Of a stretch of 64,000 bases of DNA, positions 1-16,576 are shown in pieces (position 1 is the stretch's first letter; each line of letters begins with the position of its first letter). The notes beneath the pieces are model-generated. The model saw only the letters and a program-made list of their open reading frames with translations, was not told where the DNA came from and did no database searches. The translations under genes were made by a program, and so were the position numbers. The stretch covers positions 14,980 through 78,979 of the forward strand of contig JBBDPM010000004.1 in assembly GCA_040876345.1 (NCBI GenBank), given 5' to 3'. The DNA is from Candidatus Woykebacteria bacterium. Its GTDB lineage: Bacteria > Patescibacteriota > Microgenomatia > Woykebacterales > RBG-16-39-9b.

Positions 1-330
1 TTCCATGCCATTTTCATCTTTGATAGCAAACTTGTCAGTTATAAACCGTCCAACACTAGTGATACGCTGTTGACCATCCAAAACTTCCAAATTGCTAGCA
101 CTCACTTTATTAAAATAAATTAAACCTATCGGGTACCCCTTAAGAACTGATTCAATAACGGCCATTTCTTTCTTACCACCGTCAGACGCATAAATATAGT
201 TGCGTTGGTATTCTGGCTGGATAGTCAATTTACCAGACAAACCAAATAGACCTTTACCCTCCAGTTCGTTATAGACAAATCCATCACAGATTTCTTTTAC
301 AGTTATGGTAGTTTCTAAAATTGTTTTCAT
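1..330 (-). CDS. DUF262 (ParB/Srx-like, GmrSD-N-terminal-type) domain protein, N-terminal part; gene runs past window start
   Basis: Open minus-strand frame from ATG at 330 to the window edge: [96 protein letters not shown]... LDGQQRIT is the DUF262 hallmark. Absent from the ORF track because it is partial. Confidence 0.55.
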
Positions 331-331
331 A

Positions 332-1522
332 TTATTTTTTCTTGTATTTAATAATTACTCTCATGTAAGGAATAGTGGCCTTTCCGTTTTCATTATAATA
401 GCCAAGAATTGGATGGTCTTCACTAATTGATCCTGTGCCTCCATTTTGATAATAATTACTTACAAACTCTTTATTTAAACCCTTTGGTGTAAGCTCTCTA
501 TATAAGTTACCTTGACCTAATCCAATAATTTCAAACTGCTCGGGAGAATACTTATCCAAAAAGCTAATCGGGACACCCATCAAACCGTTATAATCGCTCG
601 GGATATTTTTTACCAATGATACTTCTATCGCCTCATAATTGTCATATTTGTCATATGGTTTTTTTGTTACAAACTTGATTACCTCTGCCTTGGTCATAAG
701 CGGTAATGGTTCGTGACGACGTCCATGATCAAGGTTGGTGAACCAGCGGACGCCTTGCACTCTAGTGATATAAACTTTCTTGCCACTTTCATTTGTTTTT
801 ATTTCACGAACTTGCTCTAAATTTGCAATACCTTCTGGTATCTCAAAAAACATTGCACCACCATTGATTTTATAATTATTACCTAACCAAATTTTATTAT
901 CCTTAATTAGAGGAAATATATTCGTATATTTTAAAGCATTCAAGTTGCCGATGATCAAAAACTTTTTGTCATACTTAACAAGTTGTTGTATATACTCACG
1001 AAACAAACTGAATGGCGGATTAGTTACCACAATGTCAGATTGTTTCAGTAAATCTATAGACTCGTCACTACGAAAGTCGCCATCTCCTTCTAGTGGCGTC
1101 CATTCGTTATTCTTGTTTGCCTTTAACTGCTTGGCGACATCTTTTAAGTTAAATTCGCCATCACCGTCTATATCTTTCACTTCGTTGATAATAAATTTGT
1201 TGGCGGTTATCTTCGGACGTCCTTTTGACTTTGTGAGAGTTTTGTCGTCGCCAAATAATTGTAGTTGCGTGTTGGCGACAGGTGATGGCTTGTAGCTGGT
1301 AGTGATAAGCTGATTTAATCCGAGTTTGTTAAAATTGAGCACGAAATAGCGAAAAAAATTGCTTTCAAACGGATCGTCGCAGTTGCAATATATTACCTTA
1401 CCTCGGAATACATCGGGGTTATATTCTAAATATGCCCCAATCTCTTTCTGAATATCGCTATATTGGGTATAAAACTCGTCGTTCTTTACCCGTTTTGCAT
1501 TTGTAAGATTTTTGTTTGCCAT
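332..1522 (-). CDS. N6-adenine DNA methyltransferase (N6_Mtase-type, NPPF motif IV)
   Basis: ORF 332..1606. TNPPFSLF is motif IV of amino-MTases. Start chosen at ATG 1522 (MANKNL), preceded by GGAGAATAATTTT; this avoids overlap with the upstream gene, which ends at 1527. Confidence 0.7.
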
Positions 1523-1526
1523 AAAA

Positions 1527-2138
1527 TTATTCTCCACTCTCAATTCTTCGTCTGCGTTCATCGAGGGTTTCGCCGTCATACATCCAGTAATCAGTGCCTG
1601 CAACATTATAAGTAACCCCGAGAATTTTTTGAGCGGATGTTGAAAGACTTGTCACTTCACCACTATACTCAATTGATTTTCCTGAATTAAGATTTACGAC
1701 TTTAGCTTTTTTAGACTCGTCACGGCTGAAATAAATTTCAGAACCTAACGGAATGTTTGCCAATTCAAAATTAAACCTTCCACGCCGCTCAAGCGCTTCC
1801 TCGTGCGCCTCACGGTCTTCCTTAGATTCAATTAAATCTTTTTTAGGAGTAATATTTTCAACCTCTGCCAATTTTAAAGCCGCGACCACACGTTCCGGTG
1901 CAATTTGAAAGAATTCCCGACGTGGGTTCACACGGTTGTTATCAAAGGCATCGTGAAGTTGGTGTTCAACGAATTGAGAATTTTTTACAGTGCAAGCATA
2001 GAAAACTATAAAAGGTAACGGTACGCTAGTTGATGCACTTAATTCTCGAACGCGTTGTTCAAGGTTGTTATTTGTTTTCCCAATCTTCACATAACCAGGC
2101 ATCGCTTCATTAGTCAGGATATAAATAATCTCATTCAT
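1527..2138 (-). CDS. GIY-YIG nuclease superfamily protein (T5orf172/MUG113-like N-terminus, DUF4357-like C-terminus)
   Basis: N-terminus IYILTNEAMPGYVKIGKT...RV.EL resembles the T5orf172 GIY-YIG-like domain. First gene of a tightly packed minus-strand operon with the MTase and DUF262 genes. Confidence 0.6.
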   Translation of the reverse strand: MNEIIYILTNEAMPGYVKIGKTNNNLEQRVRELSASTSVPLPFIVFYACTVKNSQFVEHQLHDAFDNNRVNPRREFFQIAPERVVAALKLAEVENITPKKDLIESKEDREAHEEALERRGRFNFELANIPLGSEIYFSRDESKKAKVVNLNSGKSIEYSGEVTSLSTSAQKILGVTYNVAGTDYWMYDGETLDERRRRIESGE

Positions 2139-2203
2139 ATATTTTAATCAGCTTTGATCTAACATCAGTCTCGTTATCTGATAGTTTCATAATTTTATTT
2201 AGC

Positions 2204-2270
2204 TTGATTTTATCAAAAAAAGCTTGAATTAAACAGAAGAACTTTACTTTTAGATTGTTATAACAGAAAA
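2204..2270. repeat. Copy A of a ~66 bp direct repeat (ttgattttatcaaaaaaagcttgaattaaacagRagaactttaYYtttagattgttataRcaRaaaa)
   Basis: Near-identical, with 4 mismatches, to 3234..3300. Lies about 66 bp upstream of the GIY-YIG gene start on the minus strand. Confidence 0.85.
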
Positions 2271-2569
2271 ATTGAATTAAGGGCGGAAAACCCAAATCTT
2301 CAATATTGACCGAGGCAATTTAATTTTGGAAGTATAGAAATAAGGGGAAAGTATGTTGGTTTACTGCGAAAAGCAAGTTAGGCTAATTAATCAGGAGAGT
2401 TTTATCTTTGGATTATTGTAGAAGAAAATTCGTACTATGTGAAATTGACATTACTTGACAAAGTTGTTAATATATATTTTGGATGAGTGATAAGTCCGAT
2501 ACAGGTTGTTCTTAGTGTTCCCATTCATCTGTTTGGCTAAGCTAGGACAAAACAAGCCTGTAAGGCAAC

Positions 2570-3225
2570 TCATCCTTTTAAGTATAAATCCTCAAACTTT
2601 ACTTTCTCCTTAAAAGTTTCTAACCACTCTGTATCTCTTCTCTCATATTTTTGAAAGACTCCCCAGCAAAACATATCGGCAACCTGCAGCCCAGCACTTT
2701 GTTTCGAATCCCAATGATACATATCAAGAGTTACTTTGGGATCTAATCTACCTTGAATTTGAGAGCGGATATAAAAATTAAACTCATCAATCTCGGGTTT
2801 ACTTTTGGACCTATCAATAATAAGCTCGACCCTGTTTACATGGTTCTTTTCAAAAGGAATTTTGTCGATAACTTGTCTTGCAATAAAATTGTAAACTCTG
2901 GGTTTATCTTTAGTGAGTCTATCAAAGACCCTCTTCTTATTGAGAGTTATTGCATAAATCTCAAATTTAACTTTACTTAATTGATTGTAGAAGTACTGCT
3001 TAACTTCTAAAGTTGTATCTTTTCCTTTTAACTCTTCAACAATTCTTCTGCGGTGCCTTTTGGGGTTTAGTTTTCTACGCAGGGTAACCTTTACCCCTTT
3101 TGTTAATTTTCGATTGTCTTCTATCCCACTCACAGCCAAAATAGAAATCGTGAAGAATTTTGAAGGTTTTTTGTTGACAAAGTCAAACCCTAAATCACCA
3201 CTTTCGTCTAAGTATAAATACCACA
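2570..3225 (-). CDS. DUF3800 family protein
   Basis: MWYLYLDESGDLGF at the N-terminus and LQVADMFCWG near the C-terminus are the DUF3800 hallmarks. The ORF-track start at 3246/3247 is a TTG; the ATG at 3225 (MWYLYLDESG) is the more likely start. Confidence 0.7.
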
Positions 3226-3233
3226 TAGTTCCG

Positions 3234-3300
3234 TTTGATTTTATCAAAAAAAGCTTGAATTAAACAGGAGAACTTTATCTTTAGATTGTTATAGCAAAAA
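3234..3300. repeat. Copy B of the ~66 bp direct repeat
   Basis: Matches 2204..2270. Lies immediately upstream of, and overlapping, the 5' end of the DUF3800 gene on the minus strand. Confidence 0.85.
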
Positions 3301-3320
3301 ATACGTGATCATAAAACTGC

Positions 3321-3408
3321 TTGACTTGTAATTTTAACTCTGATATAAATTGATTCACTTAAATATTGTTTGTTCTGAACACTGCCTCAAAAGGCAGTTT
3401 TTTGTTTC
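3321..3408 (+). promoter_or_regulatory. Sigma70-like promoter (TTGACT, 17 bp spacer, TATAAA) followed about 30 nt downstream by an intrinsic-terminator-like hairpin (ACTGCC tcaaaa GGCAGT plus T-run), in the leader of the pilin/T4SS operon
   Basis: -35 at 3321-3326, -10 at 3344-3349. Hairpin at 3381-3398, followed by tttttgtttct. The RBS GGGGGTGA of the pilin gene follows at about 3422. Confidence 0.4.
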
Positions 3409-3434
3409 TAATCCACCCGAAAGGGGGTGAAGGC

Positions 3435-3767
3435 ATGAAAAAACTTATTGTATTACAGTCATTATTTGTAACCTCTCTGATTGTTGCCGCTCCGGCGTTT
3501 GCACAGAGCGCAGATGTGTCTAAAATCTCGAACTTTATCCAAAACATAATTACAATCTTAGTTACTCTCTCAGGATTTGTGGCAACAGGCTTTTTCGTCT
3601 GGGGAGGATTCAGCTACATTACCAGTACCGGAAACCCTGAATCACTGGATAGATCAAAAAAGACGATCTTCTATTCAGCAATCGGTTTGGCAATTGTACT
3701 TGGAGCATTTGTTATCAGTAATATTGTCACTCAGGTTGCAACTGGCGCGTTTGGCACAGGTAACTAA
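3435..3767 (+). CDS. Small secreted two-TM pilin-like protein (VirB2/TrbC-like topology)
   Basis: Start MKKLIVLQSL at 3435 with RBS AAAGGGGGTGAAGGC. Signal peptide ending AFA-QS, then a hydrophobic segment, GGFSYITSTGNPESL, and a second hydrophobic segment. Paralogous to the N-terminus of the next gene. Confidence 0.45.
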   Translation: MKKLIVLQSLFVTSLIVAAPAFAQSADVSKISNFIQNIITILVTLSGFVATGFFVWGGFSYITSTGNPESLDRSKKTIFYSAIGLAIVLGAFVISNIVTQVATGAFGTGN

Positions 3768-3792
3768 GGCAACTCTCTTAAGCCTAAATGTT

Positions 3793-5082
3793 ATGAGAAT
3801 GTTAACTTTTTTTGGCGCCGTGGCCTTATTTCTAATATCGACTACTTCGGCATATGCCGCGAGTAACACTGAAATTGCCAATTTTACCAACCAAACCCTT
3901 TCTGTCTTAATTATTATTGCTTCTTTGGCCTGTACTTTTTTCTTAATCAAGGGCGGTTATGCCTATATAACTTCAACTGGAAAACCCTATTCCCTTGAGA
4001 ACGCTAAAACCACAATTAGAAACGCACTTATTGGTTTTGTAGTTGTTCTGGGAGCTGGAGTAATTTCTTCCCTTTTAAATAATGCCTTTACCACACCAAC
4101 ATCCGGTCTAAATCCAAGTCAACTTAGTCTGACTCCAATCGTGCCTTCAACTCCAACCGGCGGTTTAACGCAAATACTACTTGATGCCGTATCCGGTTTT
4201 CTACAAAATATTGTTCAAAGTGCAACCAAGCCATTAACTGACGGGATCGTTTCCTTTCTGACTACAACACCGTCTCTGGTTTCAAACTCGGTCATTTTTA
4301 ACTTTTGGTTGGTCGTAGTCGGCATTACCGATTCGCTCTTTGCGCTGGTAATTGCCCTTTTAGGTTTCCACTTGATGAGTGCTTCAACTTTTGGGTTTGG
4401 TGAAATAGAGTTTAAACATTTACTCCCAAGAGTGGGCCTGGCCTTTTTACTAGCCAATACCTCAATCTTTCTGGCTGACTGGGTCGTTCAAAGCTGTAAT
4501 GTACTGGTCTCGGCGGTCCTGCATGCAACCGGGGGTATAAACAACGCTCTGGTAACAAATGCATTTGATCCGACTGCACTCTCAACCGGTACAACTCCGC
4601 TTATTATGCTGATTTTTATGATCCTGTTTGTAATTTTAGCAATAGTCCTGCTGCTTTTTTACGTCAGCCGGCTGATTTTTATTGCCTTAGGTGCAGTCCT
4701 CGCACCTCTTATCTTTCTTTTATGGGCAGTTCCAAAATTTACCGACTTTGCCGAAATTTCGATGAAAACCTACATCTTCACCGTATTTACGATTTTTGTT
4801 CATGTCGTAGTTATTCAACTTTCAACTGCATTTTTAACCCTGCCCGGACAAGTCGGAACAAATTCTCTGATTTCAATACTAGTTGGAATTGGGCTTTTGT
4901 TTACTCTTTTAAAAACTCCTTCAATCATGATGCAGTTGGTTTTCTACACTGCCGGTAATAGCTTGATTAAAAAAGTTGGCGGCCAAATTATGAACGTCAT
5001 GACCACGGATAAAAATGCGCCAGGAACAGTCGAGGAAACTGGTAGAGCTGTTTCTACCCCGAGAAAGGTGGTCAAGGCGTGA
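3793..5082 (+). CDS. VirB6/TrbL-like polytopic membrane protein with N-terminal pilin-like domain
   Basis: Start MRMLTFFGAV at 3793; the ORF-track extension back to 3577 overlaps the pilin gene. The N-terminal ~100 aa (signal peptide AYA-AS, GGYAYITSTGKPYSL) are homologous to the 3435..3767 product. This is followed by a Thr/Pro linker and at least 6 TM helices. Confidence 0.5.
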   Translation: MRMLTFFGAVALFLISTTSAYAASNTEIANFTNQTLSVLIIIASLACTFFLIKGGYAYITSTGKPYSLENAKTTIRNALIGFVVVLGAGVISSLLNNAFTTPTSGLNPSQLSLTPIVPSTPTGGLTQILLDAVSGFLQNIVQSATKPLTDGIVSFLTTTPSLVSNSVIFNFWLVVVGITDSLFALVIALLGFHLMSASTFGFGEIEFKHLLPRVGLAFLLANTSIFLADWVVQSCNVLVSAVLHATGGINNALVTNAFDPTALSTGTTPLIMLIFMILFVILAIVLLLFYVSRLIFIALGAVLAPLIFLLWAVPKFTDFAEISMKTYIFTVFTIFVHVVVIQLSTAFLTLPGQVGTNSLISILVGIGLLFTLLKTPSIMMQLVFYTAGNSLIKKVGGQIMNVMTTDKNAPGTVEETGRAVSTPRKVVKA

Positions 5083-5597
5083 GAACTCAAGTAATTCCAG
5101 CCCAAATCACCACAGTTGAGGATAAAATTGCCGGAAGTCTGAATTTAACCCAAATAATTCTTTTGATCTTTCCAGCTTTCTGGGCAACTATTGTTTATTC
5201 CTTATTTATCCCGAGACTTCAGCTTTCCTTATATAAATTACCACTGGTTTTGATTGTTTTGATCCTTTGTCTTGCTCTTTCAGTTCGAATTAAAGGCAGG
5301 GTGGTAATTAACTGGCTAGTAACAATTTTTAGATATAACCTGCGTCCGAAATACTATGTATTTGATAAGAACGATAGCTTTGCCAGAACACTGGATTTGC
5401 CTAACTTTAAAATGAGACAAAAATCCCAAATCAAGAAAACTATTACAATAGATGAAACCGAGAAAATTGCCGCCCCGGTAACAATTGGCAATTTAGTAAA
5501 ACTGGAAGGATTATTTACAAATCCTAAATACAGCTTTTCATTTAAATCAGGCCGAAAAGGAGGCTTAGATGTTGCTTTTAAACAAGAACAAAAATAG
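5079..5597 (+). CDS. PrgI/VirB3-like small membrane protein of Gram-positive T4SS
   Basis: TVEDKIAGSLNLTQIILLIFPAF... with two TM helices. Lies immediately upstream of VirB4, as in pCF10-type loci. Assignment from memory of the PrgI family pattern. Confidence 0.4.
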   Translation: MRTQVIPAQITTVEDKIAGSLNLTQIILLIFPAFWATIVYSLFIPRLQLSLYKLPLVLIVLILCLALSVRIKGRVVINWLVTIFRYNLRPKYYVFDKNDSFARTLDLPNFKMRQKSQIKKTITIDETEKIAAPVTIGNLVKLEGLFTNPKYSFSFKSGRKGGLDVAFKQEQK

Positions 5598-6189
5598 GGT
5601 CAGCTCAAGGCGCCAAATTCAGATCAAAGAGGTCAAAAACGGCACTTTAGTTCTGCCAGACAATGAATACAGATTAATTATTGAAACCTCCTCAATAAAC
5701 TTCGAGCTTAAAAGTGAGGAGGAGCAGGATATTTTAATTGACAATTTCCAAAACTTTCTTAACTCGCTTCCCTGTGAGCTTCAAGTTCTGGTTCGGGTTC
5801 GTGAAGTCGATATCGACCGTTATTTGGAGGAAATCGGTAAGAGCAAAGCGACTGAGCGCGAGAAGGTTTATCGAGATCAAATCAAAAACTACTGTAGTTT
5901 TATTAAAAACTTGGTGGCCGGCAATAAAATTTTATCACGGCGTTTTTACGTGGTTATCCCTTATAAGAATTCTGACAAAAACAGAGAGTTTGCACTAATT
6001 GAGGAACAAATTAACTTGCAGAAAGATATTATCCTGAGAGGCCTGGAGAAGCTAGGAATGAAAGCCAGGGTTTTGGACAGCTTAGAGCTTCTCGACCTGT
6101 TCTACAGCTTCTACAGCCCTGCACAGGCCAAAACTCAGGAGCTTAAAGGCCACACCATCGAAGCCCTGCTGGAGAATCAATATGTTTAA
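5569..6189 (+). CDS. VirB4/TrbE-like N-terminal domain protein (split from the ATPase)
   Basis: RBS AAAGGAGG precedes the ATG at 5569. 206 aa. Ends within ATGTTTAA, overlapping the start of the next ORF, which is in the +1 frame. Confidence 0.55.
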   Translation: MLLLNKNKNRVSSRRQIQIKEVKNGTLVLPDNEYRLIIETSSINFELKSEEEQDILIDNFQNFLNSLPCELQVLVRVREVDIDRYLEEIGKSKATEREKVYRDQIKNYCSFIKNLVAGNKILSRRFYVVIPYKNSDKNREFALIEEQINLQKDIILRGLEKLGMKARVLDSLELLDLFYSFYSPAQAKTQELKGHTIEALLENQYV

Positions 6190-8669: not shown

Positions 8670-8708
8670 AATACAAACTATCTCTAAAGATTGTATAATG
8701 AGGAAAAT

Positions 8709-9352: not shown

Positions 9353-10992
9353 TACTCTTCCTCCTCTTCCTTATGGTAAACTTCCATTAACTGACTCAGC
9401 CAGGCTAAAAGCGGTTCAAAAGAAAGTGCGGTTGGGTCACCATATGCTTTTTGTTCAGACAAAAAAGCTGGTTGGAGGGTATCGTAAGGTTGTTTTAGCC
9501 TCACATCCACAACTGTTTTGTTATCAATAACAAATTCCTCGATAAATGCATTGATAAACATTCTCTTAGTTGTGGGATCTGCGATTTTGTAGAGATCGTA
9601 ACAATTATTAAGTATACTTAGTGTTTTATCTAAAGCCCGAAGTCTCATCTTCTCGTCCTCTGTGGTTGATTGTCTATGTTGATTTAGAACAGCCGTTTGT
9701 CGATCGTACTCAACAATCTTTACTTCATAAATATCTTCCGGTATTCTCTTTTCCAAATGTTCCTCGACTAACCTTAACCGCTTTTCCAAAAGAGCCTTAT
9801 ACGCTTTATCAGCTGTTTCTTTTGTTAACCCGGACTGTTCTTTTACCTCCTGCTCAATTTGCTTAACCCGTATTGAAACTAAATTGTACATTGCCTTAGG
9901 AAGTTGAAGTCTCTTGAATATATTCTCAACCTTATCCTCGAGAATTGATGCTGACACCATTGGTTGGTCACAAAGCTCTCGACCGTTTCTAATTGAGCCA
10001 ATACATCTGTGATAGAGCCACTGACCTCTTTGTAAATCTCTTGTTAAACCACTTCCACACCTGAAACATTTTAACTTACTTGCCGTTAAGACAACATCTG
10101 CCGTATTAGTAGTTCTGGTCTTGGGTTTCTGTCTAAGTTTAAGAACCTCCTGAATTCTGTGCCAGGTTGGATCATTCCACATTGGTGGGTGCTCTCCTTT
10201 TGACTCCACAACCTCGTTCGTTTTTCGATCTTTAAATGTAACAAGCCCTGCGTAGAACTTACTTGAAAGTATTCTCCTCAAACCCTCAGTTCTAATAGGC
10301 CGCCCGTTGTGAGTTAGGTATCCTGAGTTGTTAAGCTCCTTGCATATTTGGTGAAGGGTAAACTGATCAGTAGAATAAAGTTTGCCTGCGTATTTAAGTG
10401 CATCAAATCTTTGTGGATCAATCTCAATCCAACTCTTTCTTCTCCCGTCCTCTAGCAGAATTCGTTTATTCAAGTATCCTTGCGGTGCAACAAACATCCA
10501 CTTGCCATCCTTTGTTCTCTGTTTCATACCTTTTACTACTTCTTGAGCTAGATTTCTTATATACCATTCATTAATCAAACTCATTTGTCTTCGAGCAAAC
10601 CAACCAGCAGGATTTGTGGGGTCAATGGGTTCTGAAGCACTAACAATAGACACCCCAATTTTATTCAAGTCTTTTTCATACTTCTGAAATTCAAAATCGT
10701 TTCTGAAAGCTCGATCGAACTTGTGAATGATTATATATTTGAAGAATCCTTGTTTAGCGTCATTAAGCAATTGGTTAAACTCTTCTCGGTTCTCAGCCAG
10801 CTTCCCACTTTCTAAATCGACATACTCTCTGTAGATTGGCAATTTTGGTGGTAGGATAAGGTTTTGGCCAAACTGAATGGCCTTGTAACAATTGTCGAGC
10901 TGAGCTGGTATCGAGACTTCTTTCTTTTGTCTTTCTTCATCACTCATTCGACAATAAATAGCTACTTTCTCTTCTGGTTCAATCTTTTTCAT
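9352..10992 (-). CDS. Large serine recombinase (integrase)
   Basis: N-terminal resolvase domain with VAIYCRMSDEE (catalytic Ser), then a recombinase domain and a Cys-rich zinc ribbon (CFRCGSGL...HRC). Start MKKIEPEE at 10992, preceded by GGAAGTGA. Confidence 0.85.
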   Translation of the reverse strand: MKKIEPEEKVAIYCRMSDEERQKKEVSIPAQLDNCYKAIQFGQNLILPPKLPIYREYVDLESGKLAENREEFNQLLNDAKQGFFKYIIIHKFDRAFRNDFEFQKYEKDLNKIGVSIVSASEPIDPTNPAGWFARRQMSLINEWYIRNLAQEVVKGMKQRTKDGKWMFVAPQGYLNKRILLEDGRRKSWIEIDPQRFDALKYAGKLYSTDQFTLHQICKELNNSGYLTHNGRPIRTEGLRRILSSKFYAGLVTFKDRKTNEVVESKGEHPPMWNDPTWHRIQEVLKLRQKPKTRTTNTADVVLTASKLKCFRCGSGLTRDLQRGQWLYHRCIGSIRNGRELCDQPMVSASILEDKVENIFKRLQLPKAMYNLVSIRVKQIEQEVKEQSGLTKETADKAYKALLEKRLRLVEEHLEKRIPEDIYEVKIVEYDRQTAVLNQHRQSTTEDEKMRLRALDKTLSILNNCYDLYKIADPTTKRMFINAFIEEFVIDNKTVVDVRLKQPYDTLQPAFLSEQKAYGDPTALSFEPLLAWLSQLMEVYHKEEEEE

Positions 10993-11167
10993 TATCACTT
11001 CCATTTTGTTCTGATAAATTTACAGTGTCAACCATACCTGCTTGTTCAGACAAATAGGTTCGGTCCTTATCAAATGCTTGCCAAACTGCCATAGAAAGCT
11101 CTTCAACTCTAAGTTGCCAGATCTTTAAGCATCCTCATTCTGTTCCCCAGTCTCTTTCCTAATAAGT

Positions 11168-11536
11168 TCAAGGTCTAGCATCTTGCCCTTCCTTAAACTT
11201 CGTTTGATAGCCCCATCTTTTTAGAATGCCTTGAAAGTAGATGGCTCTCTTTCGAACAAGACGTCCTTCGGTGGCGGCAAGTTTAGTAAAGCTCAAAGCC
11301 TCGTATAGTTTCTGGGGGTCGTAGTTATTAGCAAGTAGTCGGTAATAACCAAGGCTTCTCTCGTCACTGAGACCTTGAGCGAGAACCTTCGCCACACTTT
11401 CCTCTTCTAAGCCAAAGGAGCTAACCAAGTGGTTGACTTGGTCTGTTACAGTAATACTGTTAACTGTATTTGAATTCCTCTTAAGACTGTTAACAGTTTC
11501 TTCTTTTCCCTTCAAGGTTTCTTTAAGACTTTCCAT
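11168..11536 (-). CDS. Hypothetical protein with DnaD/DDBH2-like C-terminal motif
   Basis: C-terminal AIYFQGILKRW fits the YxxxIxxxW motif of DnaD-like replication proteins, which are common in mobile elements. Confidence 0.35.
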   Translation of the reverse strand: MESLKETLKGKEETVNSLKRNSNTVNSITVTDQVNHLVSSFGLEEESVAKVLAQGLSDERSLGYYRLLANNYDPQKLYEALSFTKLAATEGRLVRKRAIYFQGILKRWGYQTKFKEGQDARP

Positions 11537-11764
11537 AAACTAAAATCTGCCGGCTCAGAGAGTAACCAGCAGATTACGGCCTCCCTGAAATTGCCAACTA
11601 AAAAGCAGCCCTTGGTTCATCGTTAATCTTTAATCATTTGACGAACTTTCGGCTGCTACCTTGAGCAACTGTGGAGACTGGAAAGTCCTACCACCTTATT
11701 TATTTGTTAATCATATTATAACACAAGCAACAAGATTGTGCTGGAATCTCTTTAATTAAACATT

Positions 11765-11841
11765 GGCCTAGCAGCAAATAAGACGTGAAAGCGTCGGAGT
11801 CGTAATGCGGCACATCCCGTTGACTCTGACGCTGCTAGGCC
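11765..11841 (+). other. GC-rich imperfect long hairpin (GGCCTAGCAGC...GCGTCGGAGTC / GACTCTGACGC-TGCTAGGCC) with a duplicated TGCGGCACAT(C/T)C box
   Basis: Complementarity was read directly from the sequence. Lies between the recombinase/DnaD-like genes and a small ORF with strong RBS AAAGGAGG. Confidence 0.4.
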
Positions 11842-11902
11842 GATGACGAGGGGTGTGTCGCACTATTTTGCGGCACATTCACAACCAAAGGAGGTCTAGC
11901 AA

Positions 11903-12127
11903 ATGGGTTACTGGGAAATAATAGGTATATTGTTCTTGATTTCCGTTCTTCTAGCGGGGATCTTGGAAAAGAATTGGAAACCGCTACTTGGTTTGATTGG
12001 AGCAATCATATTTCTAGTCTTATTCTTTCTCTTTGTGGACTGGCTTTCACCTAAACCTGGTGAAACCACACCCGAATCCGATCCAAGTTGTATCGAAATG
12101 CAAGGGCAAACAAGGTTGGGCTGCTAA
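11903..12127 (+). CDS. Small two-TM membrane protein
   Basis: Strong RBS AAAGGAGG 8 nt upstream. 74 aa, hydrophobic. Confidence 0.4.
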   Translation: MGYWEIIGILFLISVLLAGILEKNWKPLLGLIGAIIFLVLFFLFVDWLSPKPGETTPESDPSCIEMQGQTRLGC

Positions 12128-12414
12128 CCAATTTCCTAGCAAATCTTAACAAGTAGGTACTTACTCAACATTTCTCAACAAAATCGATTCTGTGAGCAAA
12201 TAGGCACGCTCAGAAACTTAGAATAGATGTTTAGGGCGATTTCCCCAAATACTGCGCGACTAGGTGAGGCATTTAGATAAAGTAAATTATTTTCCAAAAA
12301 GGGTGGTGCGGTAGGGCACTAGCATTTTGAGGCTGAAGTTTCTCTAAACTCCTAAATACTATTTAGTTATTTTAAGTTTGCCGACAACGAGAATAATTGT
12401 TAGAATAGACTACT

Positions 12415-13386
12415 ATGAGTCAGAATAAGGCAGCACTTACTAACAAACCAAAGAAGCACCACTATGTTTCTCAGTTCTATCTGAGGGGCTTTCTGGATTC
12501 AAATAGTCAATTAAACATCTTTGATAGGTACAACAAAGTCTTTTTGAAACGTACTCCTGGTGGTATTGCTTATAACGAGAACTACTACACTGTCGACACC
12601 AAACAGGAGAAGGGCAGCACTATTCTTGAAGAGACACTCGGGCTAGTTGAAACAAAAGCAAAGCCAGTAATTGACAAGCTAACTCAGCACGGAGCTGTGT
12701 TAACCAAAGAGGAACGTGAGAATCTTGGCCTTTTCCTAGCTCTTCAACAACAAAGGGTGCCTGATAGTGAAAAAGCTAAGCGGGAAATGGCGGAAAAGAC
12801 TTATAAAGCCGTGGCTCAGAAGTTTGCTCATCTTTTGGCGACAAATAATGAGGCCTTTGAAACCACCAAGAAAAAGGTGCCTAAAGTTAAGGGCTCGCCA
12901 GAATTAACGCAAGAAGATTGGCTTGGGCTTGCTACAGGTGAGAAGTTTAAATTGGAAATTGAGGTACCGCACAGTTTTGTAGTTAAGCAGATGTTTGACT
13001 TGGCGCTTGAAGTCGCTCCGCTTATTTGTCAAATGAATTGGAAAGTTCTTTACGCATCGAAGAGTAGGGCTTTCACTACATCAGACAACCCATTCATCTT
13101 AAGTGGTAGTCCTTGGGCTCCAGGTAGAGGTGTGGGGCTTATTACGCCGAGGTCAAGAAAGTTCTTCCCTTTAACAAAGGGCGCTTGTTTGTTTATGGGC
13201 GATCAGCCAACAGCAACACTGGAGTTTGCTAGTGCTACTTCAGATGGGGTTCGTCAAATTAACAGGTTGACTGCACTTAACAGTGATAGATATATAATCT
13301 CTCATAATCAAGATCTGCTGAAGAGAATAGTAAAGATAACGAAAGTCGATACCTTCATAAAAGAGGAACGAGTTCAAGTAGGATAG
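12415..13386 (+). CDS. DUF4238 family protein
   Basis: N-terminal HHYVSQFYLRGF matches the DUF4238 signature (HYVPQFYL.xF), from memory. Own promoter TTGCCG, 17 bp spacer, TAGAAT at about 12374-12402. Confidence 0.55.
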   Translation: MSQNKAALTNKPKKHHYVSQFYLRGFLDSNSQLNIFDRYNKVFLKRTPGGIAYNENYYTVDTKQEKGSTILEETLGLVETKAKPVIDKLTQHGAVLTKEERENLGLFLALQQQRVPDSEKAKREMAEKTYKAVAQKFAHLLATNNEAFETTKKKVPKVKGSPELTQEDWLGLATGEKFKLEIEVPHSFVVKQMFDLALEVAPLICQMNWKVLYASKSRAFTTSDNPFILSGSPWAPGRGVGLITPRSRKFFPLTKGACLFMGDQPTATLEFASATSDGVRQINRLTALNSDRYIISHNQDLLKRIVKITKVDTFIKEERVQVG

Positions 13387-13388
13387 AT

Positions 13389-13976
13389 TTACTCACAAGC
13401 TGTGCCGTCACCATCCCTATCAAGGTCGTAAATATCATAACCTATTACCTGAACCGGGCCTGAGACATAAGCAGGGCCATTTCCAGATCCCCCAGCGCAA
13501 TCAACATCGCTAGCAATTGGAACACAACCAGAATAGTTGGGGTCACAATTTGATTTCTGAGCTAATGGGGCAACATAAGTGCCGTTCGCCACAATCTTTT
13601 TCACAGGTTCAGTAACAATCTTTTCAGAAATCTTTTTGCGCGAAACCTCAACACCACCCTCATAAGTAACCTCGTACTTGATCTCCTTTGTACCATCTCT
13701 TCCTTCCTGAGTTATCCTCGTCTTACCTTTTTCCAGCGTAGTGTCGATAGCTTCCTCAGTTTCAAAGGAAACGTTCTCGGTTTCGGTAATAGTCTTAACT
13801 TCGTTTGTTGGCTTTGATTCTTGAATGGTACTCTCTACTTTGGGAGCTGGTTTCGGTTCAGATGAGGGTGAAACAGCCGCAGCAAACACAGTGCCGCTTA
13901 CTAACGCGGCACCAATAAAGGCAGCCTTACCGGCGAGCGAGAGAGCGGAGAACTGAGATTTAAGTTTGTTCAGCAT
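13389..13976 (-). CDS. Secreted G5-domain protein with C-terminal Excalibur calcium-binding domain
   Basis: Signal peptide. G5-like segment ITQEGRDGTKEIKYEVTYEGG. C-terminal CDPNYSGCVP...DLDRDGDGTACE is the Excalibur DxDxDGxxCE motif. Confidence 0.6.
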   Translation of the reverse strand: MLNKLKSQFSALSLAGKAAFIGAALVSGTVFAAAVSPSSEPKPAPKVESTIQESKPTNEVKTITETENVSFETEEAIDTTLEKGKTRITQEGRDGTKEIKYEVTYEGGVEVSRKKISEKIVTEPVKKIVANGTYVAPLAQKSNCDPNYSGCVPIASDVDCAGGSGNGPAYVSGPVQVIGYDIYDLDRDGDGTACE

Positions 13977-14048
13977 ATTTCACGGCGATTGTACCATATT
14001 TGCTTGATAAAGTAATAAATTGCCTTTTGGGTCTATAATGAACCGGCA

Positions 14049-14444
14049 ATGCAAGAAGAAACTGAAAGCTCAAGTTCTGGGTCTAACCTCTGTGGTGGTC
14101 TATTTTGGGCCGTCGTTATTATAGGTGGTTTGATCTGGTTTGGAAACAAAGTATACAGAAATAACATCGAAAGCGAGAAGAAGCCTTTTTGGAGTGGGAC
14201 TGAAACTGTGCAAGTTTGCAAAGCTCCGTATTACTCCAGCAGCGACTGCTACAAACTACCCGTAACTTTGATTGACGAGGAAAGGGCACAAATTAGATTC
14301 AACAATGGAGGGTATGTTGTTGTCGGCGGCCTAAATTGTTGGAACGCGGCAAAGTTGGATGAGACTCCTCGTTATGTCTTTTGCAGAAGTGAGGATAATG
14401 AGGGAAACCGTTGGGATTTCCTACCGAACTGGGTAAATTATTAA
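14049..14444 (+). CDS. Hypothetical membrane-anchored Cys-containing protein
   Basis: One TM helix and 6 Cys. No recognised domain. Confidence 0.3.
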   Translation: MQEETESSSSGSNLCGGLFWAVVIIGGLIWFGNKVYRNNIESEKKPFWSGTETVQVCKAPYYSSSDCYKLPVTLIDEERAQIRFNNGGYVVVGGLNCWNAAKLDETPRYVFCRSEDNEGNRWDFLPNWVNY

Positions 14445-14480
14445 AATGGTAACTACTAAACAGGCACTTCAACGCGTGCT

Positions 14481-15587
14481 TTACCCCACCTTATCGTAAG
14501 GATCATATTCGACTTCTTCCGTTTCTGCGAAATTAAAGTCCCCAGAATCATCGTCCTTAATACCTAAGTAACCAGCAAAGCCTGTGTCGAGGTTTATTCC
14601 TTTGACAAGAGTAGGAATCTTTTTGAGTATTTCTTGAGAGTACTTCTCAGCATTGCCATTACCTACCACGTGCAGAATGGTTTCTTCCTTGCAAGATTTC
14701 AGCATTTCTTTGATAATTTCATCTCTTGCTTTGTACCCTATTAGATAAACCTCGTCCGCCTTACTAAACAATTCTTTGCCTGCCGCAATAATCTTTTCGT
14801 AGAACCCAGTCACGAACTTGTACTCTTTAATTGTCAACGGGAGAAATATAAGTGGGTAGAAATGTTGGTTGCCAAATCTACTACTAACAAGAGGGTGTAG
14901 TTGGTTTAGGTCGGGGTGATTTACTTCTACAACCTTTGTGTCTGTAACCTGTAAGGGTGGGGCACTAAAAATTAGACTGCTCGCAAGATCATAACGAACT
15001 CTCATATCAAAGCGACCCTCTTCAGATATACCCCGATCGTCCTTTCTCTTTGGTATCAACCAATTAACTGAGCCGTGAGGTTTGAGATAGACGATATTTA
15101 AGTCATTATTAAGGCAATCATCCAATGTCCAAAATTCTGCGCCAAACACCTCACTCAGGGCTTTATCTAGTAATATATCGTAATTGAAGTTTACCAAGCC
15201 AAACTCCTCCTCACTCTTAGCCAGCTTGTTTGCAAACACCTTATAGAGGTTTGTTTCGTCATAAGTGTCGGATACCGCTCTAAGTAGGTTCCATACATAT
15301 AAAGCTATTCTTCCAAAGAGTCTCATCTCTGACTCCTTTTGCCAAGGCTTCTTTAACTTCTGTACGTTAAGCCAACGTTCGGTTAAATAATCTTCCAAAC
15401 TCTCGTAGCCGGAGACATCTTTTGCCAAGGACTCCAAGTCTTTTGTAGATAAACCTACTTCCTTGGCGCGATCAGCGTATTGCGAGTTAAATAAATCGTT
15501 TGTTACTGGAGATTCGGTCACTACAGTATGAACTTGCGATCCTTTTGAAGCTCCAGCGCCGAAAATGTACACTTTCATAGCTGCCAT
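14481..15587 (-). CDS. SIR2-like (SIR2_2 / DHS-like NAD-binding) domain protein
   Basis: VYIFGAGASKGS at the N-terminus and KPHGSVNWL are the SIR2_2 hallmarks seen in defence SIR2 proteins (ThsA, DSR). 368 aa. Confidence 0.6.
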   Translation of the reverse strand: MAAMKVYIFGAGASKGSQVHTVVTESPVTNDLFNSQYADRAKEVGLSTKDLESLAKDVSGYESLEDYLTERWLNVQKLKKPWQKESEMRLFGRIALYVWNLLRAVSDTYDETNLYKVFANKLAKSEEEFGLVNFNYDILLDKALSEVFGAEFWTLDDCLNNDLNIVYLKPHGSVNWLIPKRKDDRGISEEGRFDMRVRYDLASSLIFSAPPLQVTDTKVVEVNHPDLNQLHPLVSSRFGNQHFYPLIFLPLTIKEYKFVTGFYEKIIAAGKELFSKADEVYLIGYKARDEIIKEMLKSCKEETILHVVGNGNAEKYSQEILKKIPTLVKGINLDTGFAGYLGIKDDDSGDFNFAETEEVEYDPYDKVG

Positions 15588-15650
15588 TCTAGCATTTTTG
15601 GCCTAAATTATACTAGTTTTCCAATTAATCTAACCTTATAATCACCATAT

Positions 15651-16514
15651 ATGCCGTTTTACTTGTATGCCTGGATTGCGACTATTTCCTTTGGTTTTGT
15701 AGTAGTTATAGTTAAGTTTGCCAGTAAGTATTCCATTTCAAACCCATGGCTGTTTAATTTTCTTACTCAACTCATACTAACGCTCCTACTGATACCCACT
15801 GCGATTTACTATCGTTCGTTTTTGCCAAGTGAATGGCTGTTCCTGGGCATATCTTCTGTTTTTAACGCTATCTGGGTACTCATGTACGTTTTTAGCCTAT
15901 ACAAACTAGATGTATCTGTATTCACACCTCTTTACAACTTTAGGGTCATATTTGCTGTCCTTTTTGGCTTCTTTCTGTTGGGAGAGACGCTTGCACTTTA
16001 CCAATTAGCTTTGTTTTGTGTGATTATAATCGGAGGGCTTTTTGTAAGTATTGATGAGAAATTAAGCCTAAAATCATTCTTTAATAAATCAATCGGTTTA
16101 GCTATAGTTGCTATGTTGTTTTTGGTCCTAAGTAATATCTACGCTAAGAAAACCTTGGCTGTAAATGATGTTTGGGAGGTAGCGCTTTGGACAAATGTAA
16201 TCACCACGTTATTTCTGATTCCGACAATCCCGAAATTTCGTAAAGATATAGGAAAACTTGGGAAGAAACAAATCCCTCCCTTAGTTCTAATGGGTTTAGC
16301 TTCAGTAATAGGCACAATTTTCGTCAATCTGGCTTATCAGATAAATGTAGGTGTTACAGCGATAATTCTTGCTATACCAACATCTATGATTTTGGCTGTA
16401 GGCATTTCTATCTTTATACCAGGCTTTCTAGAGAAACATACTAACAAAGTCTACGCAATTCGTTTTACTGCAGCGGCTGCTATGATTGTTGCTGCTTTAC
16501 TGATATCATTGTGA
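15651..16514 (+). CDS. DMT-superfamily (EamA-like) transporter
   Basis: About 10 TM helices with two-repeat architecture. Confidence 0.55.
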   Translation: MPFYLYAWIATISFGFVVVIVKFASKYSISNPWLFNFLTQLILTLLLIPTAIYYRSFLPSEWLFLGISSVFNAIWVLMYVFSLYKLDVSVFTPLYNFRVIFAVLFGFFLLGETLALYQLALFCVIIIGGLFVSIDEKLSLKSFFNKSIGLAIVAMLFLVLSNIYAKKTLAVNDVWEVALWTNVITTLFLIPTIPKFRKDIGKLGKKQIPPLVLMGLASVIGTIFVNLAYQINVGVTAIILAIPTSMILAVGISIFIPGFLEKHTNKVYAIRFTAAAAMIVAALLISL

Positions 16515-16576
16515 CCCTGGATTATTCTCTCTAATCAGTGCTATAGGATTTTTGTGTCGAGATTCTGAGACACCCC

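Follow-up and report, generated by a model that had tools for sequence, protein, structure and literature searches.

A composite accessory region derived from conjugative elements in the chromosome of a Candidatus Woykebacteria bacterium

The first 16 to 18 kb of the window, the 64,000-nucleotide stretch of a Candidatus Woykebacteria (Microgenomatia) chromosome analysed in this work, is a composite accessory region: it is derived from conjugative elements, has a patchwork structure and is not a single delimitable ICE. Four parts make up the mosaic: a defence island on the left, a conserved block with a mating-pair-formation (MPF) module, a 1.7-kb recombinase module cut off at 11112, and a set of unrelated accessory genes. 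On balance we favour the view that the region was built around the att site of a family of conjugative or mobilizable elements that target tRNA genes. The accessory nature of the first ~16 kb, claimed in a preliminary description of this DNA, was borne out by atypical composition and by the comparison with 80 related loci, which showed no synteny outside 3318-9440. Measured against core chunks of equal size, z was 4.2 for 1-3317, 2.4 for 3318-9433, 3.0 for 9434-11112 and 4.4 for 11113-16520, and the compositional comparison proposed in that description did separate 1-16.5 kb from the core (z 2.4-4.4). The segment 18579-23780 was core-like (z -0.1); in a sliding profile the composition became core-like again from ~17.5-18.6 kb, and the T4SS block was near core. 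Two other checks proposed there gave nothing: searches of the relatives found neither an empty-site allele nor a strain variant, and no flanking att repeats were found at the ends of the region.

The MPF (T4SS) module occupies 3318-8669 on the plus strand and encodes, as identified by Pfam, a VirB2-like pilin (3414-3767), a pilin-domain protein with VirB6/TrbL (3751-5082), a PrgI/VirB3-like protein (5079-5597), TrsD/TraC_N (5569-6189, recognised as TrsD also by NCBIfam), VirB4 (6182-8032) and an M23 peptidase (8133-8669). Its genes were found in 67 to 81 of 81 related loci, with VirB4 identities of 74-86%. An XRE regulator (8709-8915, plus strand, Pfam HTH_3) follows and, convergent with it, a PLD-family nuclease (8912-9352, minus strand, Pfam PLDc_2); they are present in 49 and 52 of the 81 loci, respectively, 0.6-8 kb downstream of the M23 gene with variable cargo between, and make up the module that ends the conserved block on the right. 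Across 80 related Microgenomatia VirB4 loci (tblastn, ORF clustering, blastn) only the genes from the pilin to the M23 peptidase, together with XRE and PLD, were conserved, and the DNA homology extended overall from 3318 to 9440, its left start falling at 3318-3321. No tRNA gene lay left of the pilin gene in any of 60 loci; tRNA genes often abutted the outer side of the sequence that we call the tail (see below). The T4SS had been regarded as typical of an ICE, but it is not diagnostic in this phylum: according to PMC12102498, ~80% of Patescibacteria genomes carry this monophyletic T4SS, mostly in single copy and mostly without relaxase. Because its composition is near core and this T4SS clade is nearly universal in the phylum, the T4SS block could be long fixed and not recently mobile.

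The recombinase of the window is an intact large serine recombinase of 546 aa (9352-10992, minus strand; Pfam Resolvase, Recombinase and Zn_ribbon; XisF/CcrB-like in NCBIfam, below cut-off), the stop of which overlaps the PLD start (TAATG at 9352); only three close homologues were found among 5.8 billion proteins. Inside its 3' end lies a 10-nt sequence, the putative att core ATGGTGACCC (9434-9443, minus strand), which resembles a tRNA acceptor end. Homology to T4SS-PLD loci stops at 9424-9440, and homology of the recombinase gene to the loci L085 and L084 stops at 9434 and 9432, respectively. In the two closest homologues (P0002, P0003) the sequence beyond the core is antisense tRNA, an 86%-identical homologue (L085/L086) runs into tRNA-Lys(UUU), and the loci of the closest homologues (L083-L086) have no T4SS or PLD beside them. 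We read the core as the junction of the conserved T4SS-PLD block with the recombinase body, and the adjacency of recombinase and PLD as an unsplit, attP-like junction; the preliminary description took this coupling for an ordinary ICE backbone, whereas it would be absent from an element integrated via that site. The other end of the recombinase module is marked by a small truncated ORF and a breakpoint (10979-11112, minus strand; 37 aa here versus 60 aa in L085), and the DNA homology between the window and L085 is limited to 9434-11112, at 78% identity.

The recombinase ORF ends in 29 codons (the tail, 9355-9441, minus strand, GDPTALSFEPLLAWLSQLMEVYHKEEEEE followed by the stop) whose peptide is also found upstream of PLD elsewhere. 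At least 22 related loci that have no recombinase next to PLD retain the tail in front of that gene, and a stop codon frequently stands directly before it. The coding signature is clear: the synonymous share is 29.7% in frame 0, compared with 11% and 5% in the two others, and stops number 0, 21 and 50, respectively. Nine loci have a tail of a second type, and in at least 36 of 51 loci PLD is preceded either by a core of the form GTGASCC...TTKGAAC or by this second type. We regard the tail as the P' arm of the att site; it goes with PLD and not with the recombinase body.

The family with T4SS, XRE, PLD and recombinase includes bona fide conjugative or mobilizable elements integrated at tRNA genes, and to this extent the ICE backbone proposed earlier stands; T4CP and relaxase are lacking in the window, and the region is not one ICE. 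In about 11 genome loci a serine recombinase (SerRec), c23, T4CP (TraG-D_C/TrwB), Replic_Relax (PF13814, a MOBC-class family, PMC5357655) and DUF2958 stand beside the T4SS, and the same arrangement was seen in L109 of the metagenome set. The recombinase ORF runs into tRNA-Gly in L011, L093 and L094, into tRNA-Arg in L020, tRNA-Lys in L089, tRNA-Asp in L104 and tRNA-Glu in L107. In the last of these, a locus without T4SS, both ends of the element are defined by an exact direct repeat of 16 nt, one copy of which lies at the tRNA-Glu/recombinase junction and the other just upstream of tail and PLD. Its recombinase has an in-frame stop, and joining the ends of the element restores the recombinase ORF with a stop overlapping the PLD start codon. 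This arrangement indicates that in L107 attP lies within the recombinase ORF, and that recombinase and PLD adjoin only in a circular or tandem form. Accretion at the att site is seen directly in L032, where two copies of the tail enclose a Fic cassette, and in L036, where two tail variants enclose a cassette of three ORFs. Other unsplit junctions are those of the two metagenome-assembled genomes L054 and L065, in which the tail is continuous with a complete recombinase module; each of these genomes has two VirB4 loci.

These observations can be combined into a history which, taken as a whole, we hold to be reasonably probable: a tRNA-targeting element family, of which the window would contain a right half and an accreted recombinase. 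As relatives show, in the circular form the last 10-45 codons of the serine recombinase gene and the coupled PLD lie beyond the crossover, attP being inside the ORF. Relatives also show that, upon integration at a tRNA 3' end, the recombinase body comes to lie at one extremity of the element and terminates in antisense tRNA codons; tail and PLD come to lie at the other, as in the T4SS-less L107. The T4SS, T4CP, the MOBC/Replic_Relax relaxase, DUF2958 and cargo would lie between these ends; we infer this two-end layout for T4SS-bearing elements, because none among the examined loci had both ends in one locus. The ring model for such elements draws on L107, on L031 and L109 with one end each, and on the conservation of the tail. 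Window positions 3318-9443 correspond to the right-hand half of such an element (MPF module, XRE, PLD and tail). At the core this half is joined to a recombinase body that is itself intact but belongs to a module cut off at 11112. The unsplit junction in the chromosome would most likely be the trace of a second element accreted in tandem, which may since have lost everything except its recombinase; no second PLD with tail, T4CP or T4SS was found right of the junction in the window.

The defence cargo noted earlier includes real defence genes, as judged by Pfam and PADLOC, and these lie on both sides of the conserved block. At the left the window edge cuts a DUF262/GmrSD_N gene with HNH (3' part, 1-331, minus strand), which continues leftward; on contig L002 the full protein has 389 aa (gene 1904-3073; PF03235 with a weak HNH), and PADLOC assigns it to REase_II (E=2.6e-80). 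The neighbouring gene (332-1579, minus strand) encodes an EcoRI-type N6-adenine methyltransferase (PF13651, E=7e-125; PADLOC MTase_II, E=9e-105), and the two are predicted to be the endonuclease and the MTase of a type II R-M pair, found left of the pilin gene also in L005 and L006. The T5orf172/GIY-YIG protein (1527-2138, minus strand; PF10544, E=1e-18; PADLOC PDC-S57, E=8e-68) is a candidate for the defence gene PDC-S57; in L031 its homologue adjoins DUF2958. Next to it lies a DUF3800 cassette (2204-3301) bracketed by 67-nt direct repeats (2204-2270 and 3235-3301, 93% identical) and comprising a DUF3800 gene (2570-3247, minus strand, Pfam) and a DUF3800-V RNA (2480-2576, plus strand; Rfam RF02964, 64.5 bits); Logan contigs of other samples show breaks at ~2233 and ~3413. 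Together with PDC-M36, which lies further left, the type II R-M pair, PDC-S57 and DUF3800 with its RNA occupy the hotspot for cargo on the upstream side of the pilin gene.

The genes of 11113-15587, for which the 168 loci examined contained no homologue, are further accessory DNA. They encode a 122-aa unknown protein (11168-11536, minus strand), a 74-aa membrane ORF, DUF4238 (12415-13386, plus strand; Pfam; PADLOC DUF4238-Pers, 1e-6), a secreted protein with G5 and Excalibur domains (13389-13976, minus strand, Pfam), a 131-aa unknown protein and a weakly SIR2-like protein (14481-15587, minus strand) with sub-threshold scores (Pfam E=1e-4, PADLOC ~2e-4) and no NCBIfam or PDB match. Most families of the initial gene list were recovered by Pfam; SIR2 was so only below threshold, and the label 'DnaD-like', given to the 122-aa protein, is unsupported, family and PDB searches being empty. 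The EamA/DMT transporter that follows (15651-16514, plus strand, Pfam EamA) is probably chromosomal backbone; it has more than 200 homologues across Microgenomatia, nearly all of 287 aa. Housekeeping genes had been placed after 16.5 kb. They are indeed present, but begin at 23.8 kb with the ATP synthase operon, followed by UvrA/B, iPGM, PPDK, H+-PPase and Lon, and are preceded (16.5-23.8 kb) by genes for two unknown proteins, an Abhydrolase_9 protein of patchy distribution, a pair resembling a toxin-antitoxin system, a membrane protein and an SDR. The right boundary of the region lies somewhere between 11.1 and 18.6 kb. One boundary proposed earlier (11.0-11.9 kb) is close to the real breakpoint at 11112, where L085 homology ends; the other, a repeat at 16.6 kb, has its partner at 22.3-22.45 kb and is unrelated to the att core. 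A second exact copy of the core (18569-18578, on the minus strand like the first, with a 29-codon open frame following) is a weak candidate for the distal att site: the match covers 10 nt, similarity in its flanks is weak, and the composition is core-like from about there.

A different explanation for the junction would be that T4SS, XRE and PLD are an old, fixed, co-opted chromosomal locus, in which a tRNA-like pseudo-attB before PLD takes up independent recombinase elements and cassettes; the window would be one such integration, and the T4SS would never have belonged to the same mobile unit. This would agree with the wide distribution of the mostly single-copy, relaxase-free T4SS clade, with the near-core composition of the block, with the cassettes in L032 and L036, and with the closest recombinase homologues adjoining no T4SS or PLD. 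However, in L107 the direct repeats enclose tail and PLD, which stand at the far end and thus are part of the mobile unit, and protein-level constraint on tails that are untranslatable in place is hard to square with a host attB. Moreover, the integrated recombinase/T4CP/relaxase modules at tRNA genes are on the pilin side, where in 60 other loci no tRNA gene adjoins the pilin gene, and it is the outer side of the tails that tRNA genes abut. We consider this explanation rather unlikely.

The preliminary description saw a single intact ICE, reaching from beyond the left edge to ~16.5 kb, with recombinase and PLD as integration module and the listed defence genes as cargo. The joint presence of T4SS, recombinase, XRE regulator and defence genes and the atypical composition until ~16.5-18.6 kb are what such an element would show, but T4CP and relaxase are absent, the recombinase stands in mid-region in the unsplit attP state and not at a tRNA-flanked end, its module is truncated, the genes of 11.1-15.6 kb have no counterpart in related elements, and flanking att repeats were not found. 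This reading is already disfavoured, and we give it little credence. Still more improbable, in our opinion, is that the locus has no mobile history of its own and is a variable, rapidly evolving stretch of a small genome in which the junctions coincide by chance. Synteny is poor everywhere in Microgenomatia, and even around the conserved EamA gene the neighbours differ at 70% identity; but the coinciding homology breakpoints, which agree within 10 nt between two independent sets of relatives, contradict it, as do the 16-nt exact repeat in L107 and the recurrent recombinase-tRNA fusions.

It is useful to compare the favoured tRNA-targeting family with known systems. MPF_FATA-type ICEs and IMEs of monoderms with large serine recombinases (e.g. 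Tn5397/TndX, Tn4451/TnpX, the SCC Ccr recombinases) as a rule insert into protein-coding genes or at specific sites. The window resembles them in its integrase with Resolvase, Recombinase and Zn-ribbon domains, its monoderm-conjugation-like T4SS and the defence/resistance cargo; it differs in lacking T4CP and relaxase, and its relatives in integrating at tRNA 3' ends, with attP within the recombinase ORF and PLD coupled downstream. In SSV1-type integrases of archaeal fuselloviruses and integrative plasmids attP also lies within the integrase gene and tRNA integration partitions the gene, but these are tyrosine recombinases split roughly in two, whereas the bacterial serine recombinase would shed only its last 10-45 codons and be uncoupled from the downstream PLD gene. 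In the integration-dependent immunity of mycobacteriophages, reportedly described by Broussard and colleagues in 2013 for phages with tyrosine integrases, attP is in the repressor gene; the likeness is an attP in a coding region, with C-termini differing between integrated and free forms, whereas here it is in the recombinase gene, and a degradation-tag role is not implied. ICESt3-type tandem arrays, in which ICEs and cis-mobilizable elements accrete at a shared att site through tyrosine integrases, are similar in the shared attachment site and the att-bracketed non-autonomous cassettes (L032, L036), but here a serine recombinase is involved and the tandem origin of the window junction is inferred. 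The Nuc endonuclease of the IncN plasmid pKM101 is likewise a small PLD-superfamily nuclease beside a T4SS on a conjugative element, a likeness of gene type and setting; unlike Nuc, the PLD of the window family is translationally coupled to a recombinase tail.

The closest match for the T4SS itself is the Patescibacteria clade described by Quinonero-Coronel et al. 2025 (PMC12102498) and reviewed in PMC12857230. As in the former study, the window has VirB2-like pilins, VirB6, PrgI/VirB3, a TrsD gene that precedes VirB4 and a peptidase gene that follows it, the system is chromosomal, and virB4 has no adjacent relaxase or T4CP; the study treats it as a co-opted chromosomal system. A bounding recombinase, PLD gene or att site is not described in the part of it considered here, whereas the Microgenomatia version ends at an att core, and a minority of Microgenomatia loci are flanked by T4CP, MOBC and a recombinase integrated at tRNA genes.

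T4CP, relaxase (Replic_Relax/MOBC) and DUF2958 were found neither in the window nor in L002, which extends 4.3 kb further left; together these sequences extend leftward from the pilin gene for 7.7 kb, and the recombinase/tRNA end of the resident element is not within them. Since there is no T4CP or relaxase in the window or in these 4.3 kb, the locus by itself would be incapable of DNA transfer, and its T4SS has probably been retained for the contact-dependent role that was proposed for Patescibacteria.

The T4SS named in the preliminary description is present in the window: at 3414-8669, Pfam and NCBIfam matches identify a VirB2-like pilin, a protein combining a pilin domain with VirB6/TrbL, PrgI, a TraC_N/TrsD-like protein, VirB4 and an M23 peptidase. 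A VirB4-based genome scan yielded 178 relatives, of which the best 80 loci, with VirB4 74-86% identical, were analysed; these came from Daviesbacteria, Roizmanbacteria, Levybacteria, Shapirobacteria, Collierbacteria, WWE3, Pacebacteria and some mislabelled MAGs. Five MAGs had two VirB4 copies, and a VirB4 scan of viral contigs returned no relatives. By tblastn, all-against-all ORF clustering and blastn only one block proved to be recurrent: pilin, VirB6, PrgI, TrsD, VirB4 and M23. It is followed by variable cargo of 0.6-8 kb, then by the XRE gene, a small ORF and, on the opposite strand, the PLD gene. DNA homology of the relatives to the window extends from 3318 to at most 9440, and outside the block, left of the pilin or right of PLD, nothing was common to more than 12 loci. 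Cargo at variable positions included type I R-M, OLD/AAA_15, Fic, SNF2 helicases, heavy-metal ATPases, CsoR and ABC exporters. Many of the carriers (L008, L010, L014-L024 and others) are TPA MAGs entitled 'uncultured Gammaproteobacteria', 'Pseudomonadales', 'Methylococcaceae', 'Anaerolineae' or 'Micrarchaeota'; such records with a Microgenomatia-type T4SS are probably mislabelled or mis-binned. Another gene order (pilin, VirB6, PrgI, TrsD, VirB4, T4CP, opposite-strand PLD) was seen in the more distant metagenome loci L095, L097, L100, L102, L106, L113, L118 and L120, in whose lineages the T4CP was thus retained by the T4SS locus, between VirB4 and PLD.

PMC12102498 describes a Patescibacteria T4SS clade that occurs in about 80% of genomes, is monophyletic, mostly single copy and usually without a nearby relaxase, and is considered co-opted; the relaxases counted there number 109 in 103 genomes, 58 of them MOBC and fifteen near virB4. 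The predicted genes of the window locus fit the gene set of this clade, with no relaxase nearby. A T4SS alone is therefore no evidence of an ICE in this phylum.

At its right end the block meets a junction. The adjoining gene (9352-10992, minus strand) is intact, and its predicted 546-aa product fits the large serine recombinase type with Resolvase, Recombinase and zinc ribbon domains (Pfam PF00239, 4e-21; PF07508, 3e-11; PF13408, 6.5e-6). Pfam likewise recovered the PLD nuclease (PLDc_2), and the translational coupling proposed for the two genes holds, the recombinase stop overlapping the PLD start codon. Only three close homologues of the recombinase were found among 5.8 billion proteins. 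DNA homology to the 86% homologue (loci L085/L086) is confined to 9434-11112 and that to the 71% homologue (L083/L084) to 9432-11129. The window recombinase and both homologues share '...YG(D/E)P' and diverge right after it: the homologous protein P0002 goes on as 'GGIRTHN...', which is read from the antisense strand of a tRNA-Lys(UUU) gene that its 3' end overlaps, P0003 enters a 3' piece of a tRNA adjoining tRNA-Val, and the window ORF continues instead as GDPTALSFEPLLAWLSQLMEVYHKEEEEE*. From these homology breakpoints and tRNA fusions we infer that the tRNA-acceptor-like 10 nt at 9434-9443 (minus strand) are an att core; the T4SS-PLD block has its end, and the recombinase body its start, at these 10 nt. 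The contiguous arrangement of recombinase body, core, tail (the last 29 recombinase codons, 9355-9441, minus strand) and PLD in the window, which we call unsplit, was confirmed by two assemblies.

Twenty-two related loci lacking a recombinase at this place also have the tail directly upstream of PLD, and several of these recombinase-less tails have an in-frame stop 0-5 codons upstream and no start codon. The tails evolve like coding sequence. Differences by codon position number 862, 664 and 1213, the synonymous share of differing codons is 29.7% in frame 0 vs 11% and 5% in the other frames, and there are no stops in frame 0 vs 21 and 50 in the others. Another PLD subtype comes with a tail of its own, APSGTMLEPI*, the conservation of which begins abruptly at GTGCACCATCTGG; this type was found in nine loci, with or without recombinase, and the two types together in at least 31. 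PLD is preceded by a core of the form GTGASCC, ~12 nt and TTKGAAC, or by the second tail type, in at least 36 of 51 loci, and further core variants upstream of PLD are visible by eye. What looked like a tail at the left end of L085 lacks a core and was discarded.

The T4SS block of about 11 genome loci has a second module as its neighbour, made up of a serine recombinase, the ~100-aa protein c23, a ~860-aa T4CP (TraG-D_C + TrwB_AAD_bind), Replic_Relax (PF13814), which belongs to the MOBC relaxase class (PMC5357655), and DUF2958. The module is immediately left of the pilin in L011, L020, L022, L024 and L076, partly so in L018, L031, L066 and L072, and right of PLD in L054 and L065, with the recombinase alone in L041. 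In L031 the T4CP, relaxase and DUF2958 genes stand left of a single T4SS, and PLD with the tail to the right of it. Recombinase, T4CP, relaxase, DUF2958 and T4SS are all in one piece in L109, and L111 has the order T4SS, T4CP, recombinase, tRNA.

Recombinase ORFs located on the pilin side run antisense into a tRNA gene, which is tRNA-Gly in L011 and tRNA-Arg in L020. Additional tRNA-integrated loci came from a T4CP-anchored metagenome scan; in the metagenome loci the recombinase meets tRNA-Lys (L089), tRNA-Gly (L093, L094), tRNA-Asp (L104) or tRNA-Glu (L107). The last of these is a fully delimited 11.6-kb element in tRNA-Glu (4145-15795 of L107). Its 16-nt direct repeat TCACCATAAAGGGATT stands where tRNA-Glu meets the recombinase (4214) and again at 15780, directly before tail and PLD. 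The repeats enclose the genes for the recombinase, Replic_Relax, T4CP and PLD and, as cargo, an ABC-3C defence pair (CTD10/HNH and DUF2326); as there is no T4SS among them, we regard L107 as a mobilizable element. Joining its ends restores a recombinase ORF ending in '...ADLENKDV*', the stop of which overlaps the PLD start codon as in the window, and therefore attP lies inside the recombinase ORF. An in-frame stop interrupts the L107 recombinase near its N-terminus, after the catalytic-serine motif, so that this copy may be locked in place. With attP in this position, recombinase and PLD adjoin each other only while the element is circular or in tandem, and they come to lie at opposite ends once it is integrated. 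L107 and the tails show such a split-on-integration architecture for the family; the window itself has the joined, not the integrated, form. The arrangement of L031 fits this architecture, and so do two observations on tRNA genes. In 60 loci that lack the module, the 7 kb to the left of the pilin contain no tRNA gene, which counts against a separate element merely landing beside the T4SS. On the outer side of the tail, by contrast, tRNA genes are often direct neighbours (L045, L060, L077), as expected for insertion at the 3' end of an array's first tRNA. Direct-repeat searches found no second core within the fetched range of tRNA-integrated loci other than L107, and PLD was not within the fetched range of loci with the recombinase on the pilin side.

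The window shares with these relatives the adjacency of PLD and recombinase, but the other four module genes are absent from its 64 kb and from L002, a 6.5-kb Logan contig from another sample that ends at ~2233 and reaches 4.3 kb past the window's left edge. Apart from this extension, look-ups of identical MTase, T5orf172, VirB4 and PLD proteins led to no context other than that of the window. In these two sequences tblastn with 11 T4CPs of related elements gave nothing significant, no Replic_Relax/MOBC or DUF2958 homologues were found, and Pfam scans detected no relaxase domain. The ICE backbone proposed in the preliminary description is therefore present in part: the T4SS with VirB4 and the intact recombinase stand, but T4CP and relaxase are missing from these two sequences, although a T4CP may be encoded elsewhere in the genome, and the T4SS of the window is probably non-transmissible. 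A 122-aa protein of the window, labelled 'DnaD-like' in the same description, had no Pfam, NCBIfam or PDB match, and the label was dropped; its kinship with c23 was also considered and rejected (hmmsearch 5 bits, hhalign probability 0.9%).

How, then, did an unsplit junction come to be in the chromosome? An element integrated via the 9434-9443 site would not show it. The att site is demonstrably a place of DNA accretion: in L032 (16871-18060) two ~70-nt tail copies starting at the core enclose a Fic cassette, in L036 (15200-16910) two tail variants enclose three small ORFs, and both recombinase-less cassettes look like non-autonomous elements accreted at the site. The two MAGs in which a complete recombinase module is joined to the tail (L054, L065) have two VirB4 loci each, and the L065 contig ends 1.2 kb past DUF2958, as expected at a repeat. 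Because of the unsplit chromosomal junction, the accretion seen at the site and the MAGs with two VirB4 loci, we read the window as a tandem accretion. A resident T4SS element would have its right end at 9443, and a second element would have accreted onto it, of which only the recombinase and 108 nt of an upstream small ORF would survive, up to the breakpoint at 11112. An intact, unoccupied tRNA-Lys(UUU) gene, the type targeted by the 86% homologue (L085/L086), is present at 56436-56511 (plus strand), 47 kb from the attP-like site and in direct orientation to it; if these two sites recombined, core genes would be lost.

The left part of the window stands out in composition: the tetranucleotide profile of 1-16.5 kb is unlike that of the core (z 2.4 to 4.4 per segment), that of 18.6-23.8 kb is core-like. 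In a sliding profile the deviation peaked in the left defence island (z up to 5.4), the T4SS genes came close to the core, and core composition was regained at about 17.5-18.6 kb. GC is ~0.36-0.40 over the first 10 kb and ~0.42 elsewhere. As had been supposed, the left boundary is outside the window; the left end of the accessory region lies beyond L002 as well. The conserved block itself begins at 3318, directly after the second copy of a 67-nt repeat beside DUF3800. Each of the two direct repeats (2204-2270 and 3235-3301; 93% identity) immediately precedes a gene on the minus strand, and the pair brackets a ~1-kb cassette (2204-3301) consisting of the DUF3800 gene and a DUF3800-V RNA (Rfam RF02964, 64.5 bits, 2480-2576, plus strand). 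Assemblies of other samples break near this cassette, at ~2233 and ~3413, the latter being where L001, a 43.9-kb Logan contig that runs rightwards through T4SS and recombinase into the flank, joins the window; these breaks hint at population heterogeneity or at repeat-induced breakage.

On the right side the junction at 9434-9443 and the breakpoint at 11112 are certain, and the accessory DNA ends somewhere within 15.6-18.6 kb. None of the 168 fetched loci has anything corresponding to the genes at 11.1-15.6 kb. The repeat at 16.6 kb, put forward earlier as a possible boundary, does not qualify as an att site: its partner is at 22.3-22.45 kb, it has no similarity to the att core, and among all fetched loci it was found only in L001, which is the same genome sequence. 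The two copies (16576-16804 and 22324-22452) share two blocks in direct orientation, 29 nt at 90% and 45 nt at 91% identity. Both sit in convergent intergenic regions, and the 5.7 kb between them encode Abhydrolase_9, a membrane protein, an SDR, a toxin-antitoxin-like pair and two proteins of unknown function. The first copy is longer by ~100 nt and, unlike the second (z=0.8), folds strongly (z=-6.4); the repeat has no Rfam match. The unsplit junction at 9434-9443 was the one att-type junction found in the region, apart from a weak second core copy. This copy, at 18569-18578 (minus strand, the strand of the recombinase) in the p333/p518 intergenic region, is an exact core, ATGGTGACCC, and is followed by TA, later by TTGAACCA, and by the 29-codon open frame GDPSNPAIKHIEPGSDTMGQLKYTTVFRG*. 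Extended by its flanks it becomes AATGGTGACCCTA (13 nt), which the distal tail copy in L032 matches exactly, and it coincides with the return to core-like composition; we regard it as a weak candidate for the distal att site. Searching via the right-flank genes did not reveal an empty-site allele or strain variant: Abhydrolase_9 homologues were at most 57% identical and in unrelated contexts, and the 70% and 53% EamA homologues had no neighbour in common with the window. The EamA gene is widely conserved in Microgenomatia and is probably chromosomal backbone.

The housekeeping genes said to follow from 16.5 kb onwards are real (AtpD, iPGM, UvrA/B, H+-PPase, PPDK, Lon and seven tRNAs), but they start only at 23.8 kb; 16.5-23.8 kb carries genes for an SDR, an Abhydrolase_9 of patchy distribution, a toxin-antitoxin-like pair and proteins of unknown function. 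The Abhydrolase_9 membrane protein (18606-20162) has few Patescibacteria homologues (at most 57% identity) and otherwise matches mainly Nocardia, Rhodococcus and Mycobacterium proteins at ~30% identity, which suggests a patchy, possibly horizontal, distribution. The small gene pair at 20301-20690 resembles Phd/RelE-type toxin-antitoxin systems, its second ORF being 35% identical to a YafQ_toxin-annotated gene that adjoins the EamA homologue in L169. An unusually long stretch (11537-12414, 878 nt) contains only one ORF, for a 74-aa membrane protein (11903-12127). An Rfam search over 11.0-23.8 kb gave no matches at E<=1.

Pfam bore out the EcoRI-type MTase, T5orf172/GIY-YIG, DUF3800, XRE and DUF4238 genes of the preliminary description and added a G5+Excalibur protein and EamA. 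The DUF262 gene is cut by the window edge; L002 shows it to encode a 389-aa GmrSD_N+HNH protein. The gene, on L002 and window 1-331, matches PADLOC REase_II (2.6e-80), the neighbouring MTase matches MTase_II (9e-105), and together they form a predicted type II R-M pair. PADLOC also assigned T5orf172 to PDC-S57 (8e-68) and a DUF8370/8371 protein farther left to PDC-M36A (2e-20). The SIR2 assignment is weaker: Pfam SIR2_2 (E=1e-4) and PADLOC SIR2 models (~2e-4) gave matches, all sub-threshold, but NCBIfam and PDB gave none. Of the ICE-like region originally proposed there remains an ICE-derived mosaic island rich in defence genes; it could not be delimited as an ICE and is probably not self-transmissible.

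For the window the message is the more modest one of a defence-rich accessory island with a T4SS that is probably unable to transmit. The unusual result is at the level of the family, in which the gene of a serine recombinase targeting tRNA 3' ends spans attP and is coupled to PLD, and in which the orphaned recombinase tail is the end mark of the T4SS block throughout Microgenomatia. In the literature searched we found no description of an attP-spanning recombinase coupled to PLD for Patescibacteria. Large serine recombinases with an ORF across attP and tRNA 3' targets would also be of interest for genome-engineering tool mining.

The question at stake is whether the near-universal T4SS of Patescibacteria still moves DNA or has been repurposed for an epibiotic lifestyle. 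The att core and conserved tail bounding the Microgenomatia T4SS block, the tRNA-integrated relatives with T4CP and MOBC relaxase, and one fully delimited element provide sequence-level handles on it. We propose tentatively, and consider it somewhat less probable than its opposite, that the Microgenomatia T4SS loci regarded as co-opted are the right-hand halves of living or fossil tRNA-targeting ICEs, in which the recombinase gene spans attP, full-length recombinase and translationally coupled PLD are expressed as one operon only in the excised or tandem form, and integration leaves PLD orphaned and the recombinase with a C-terminus encoded by antisense tRNA sequence. If this is true, these elements would have a built-in switch reporting their integration state, and at least part of the Patescibacteria T4SS repertoire would still be conjugative, via MOBC/Replic_Relax relaxases.
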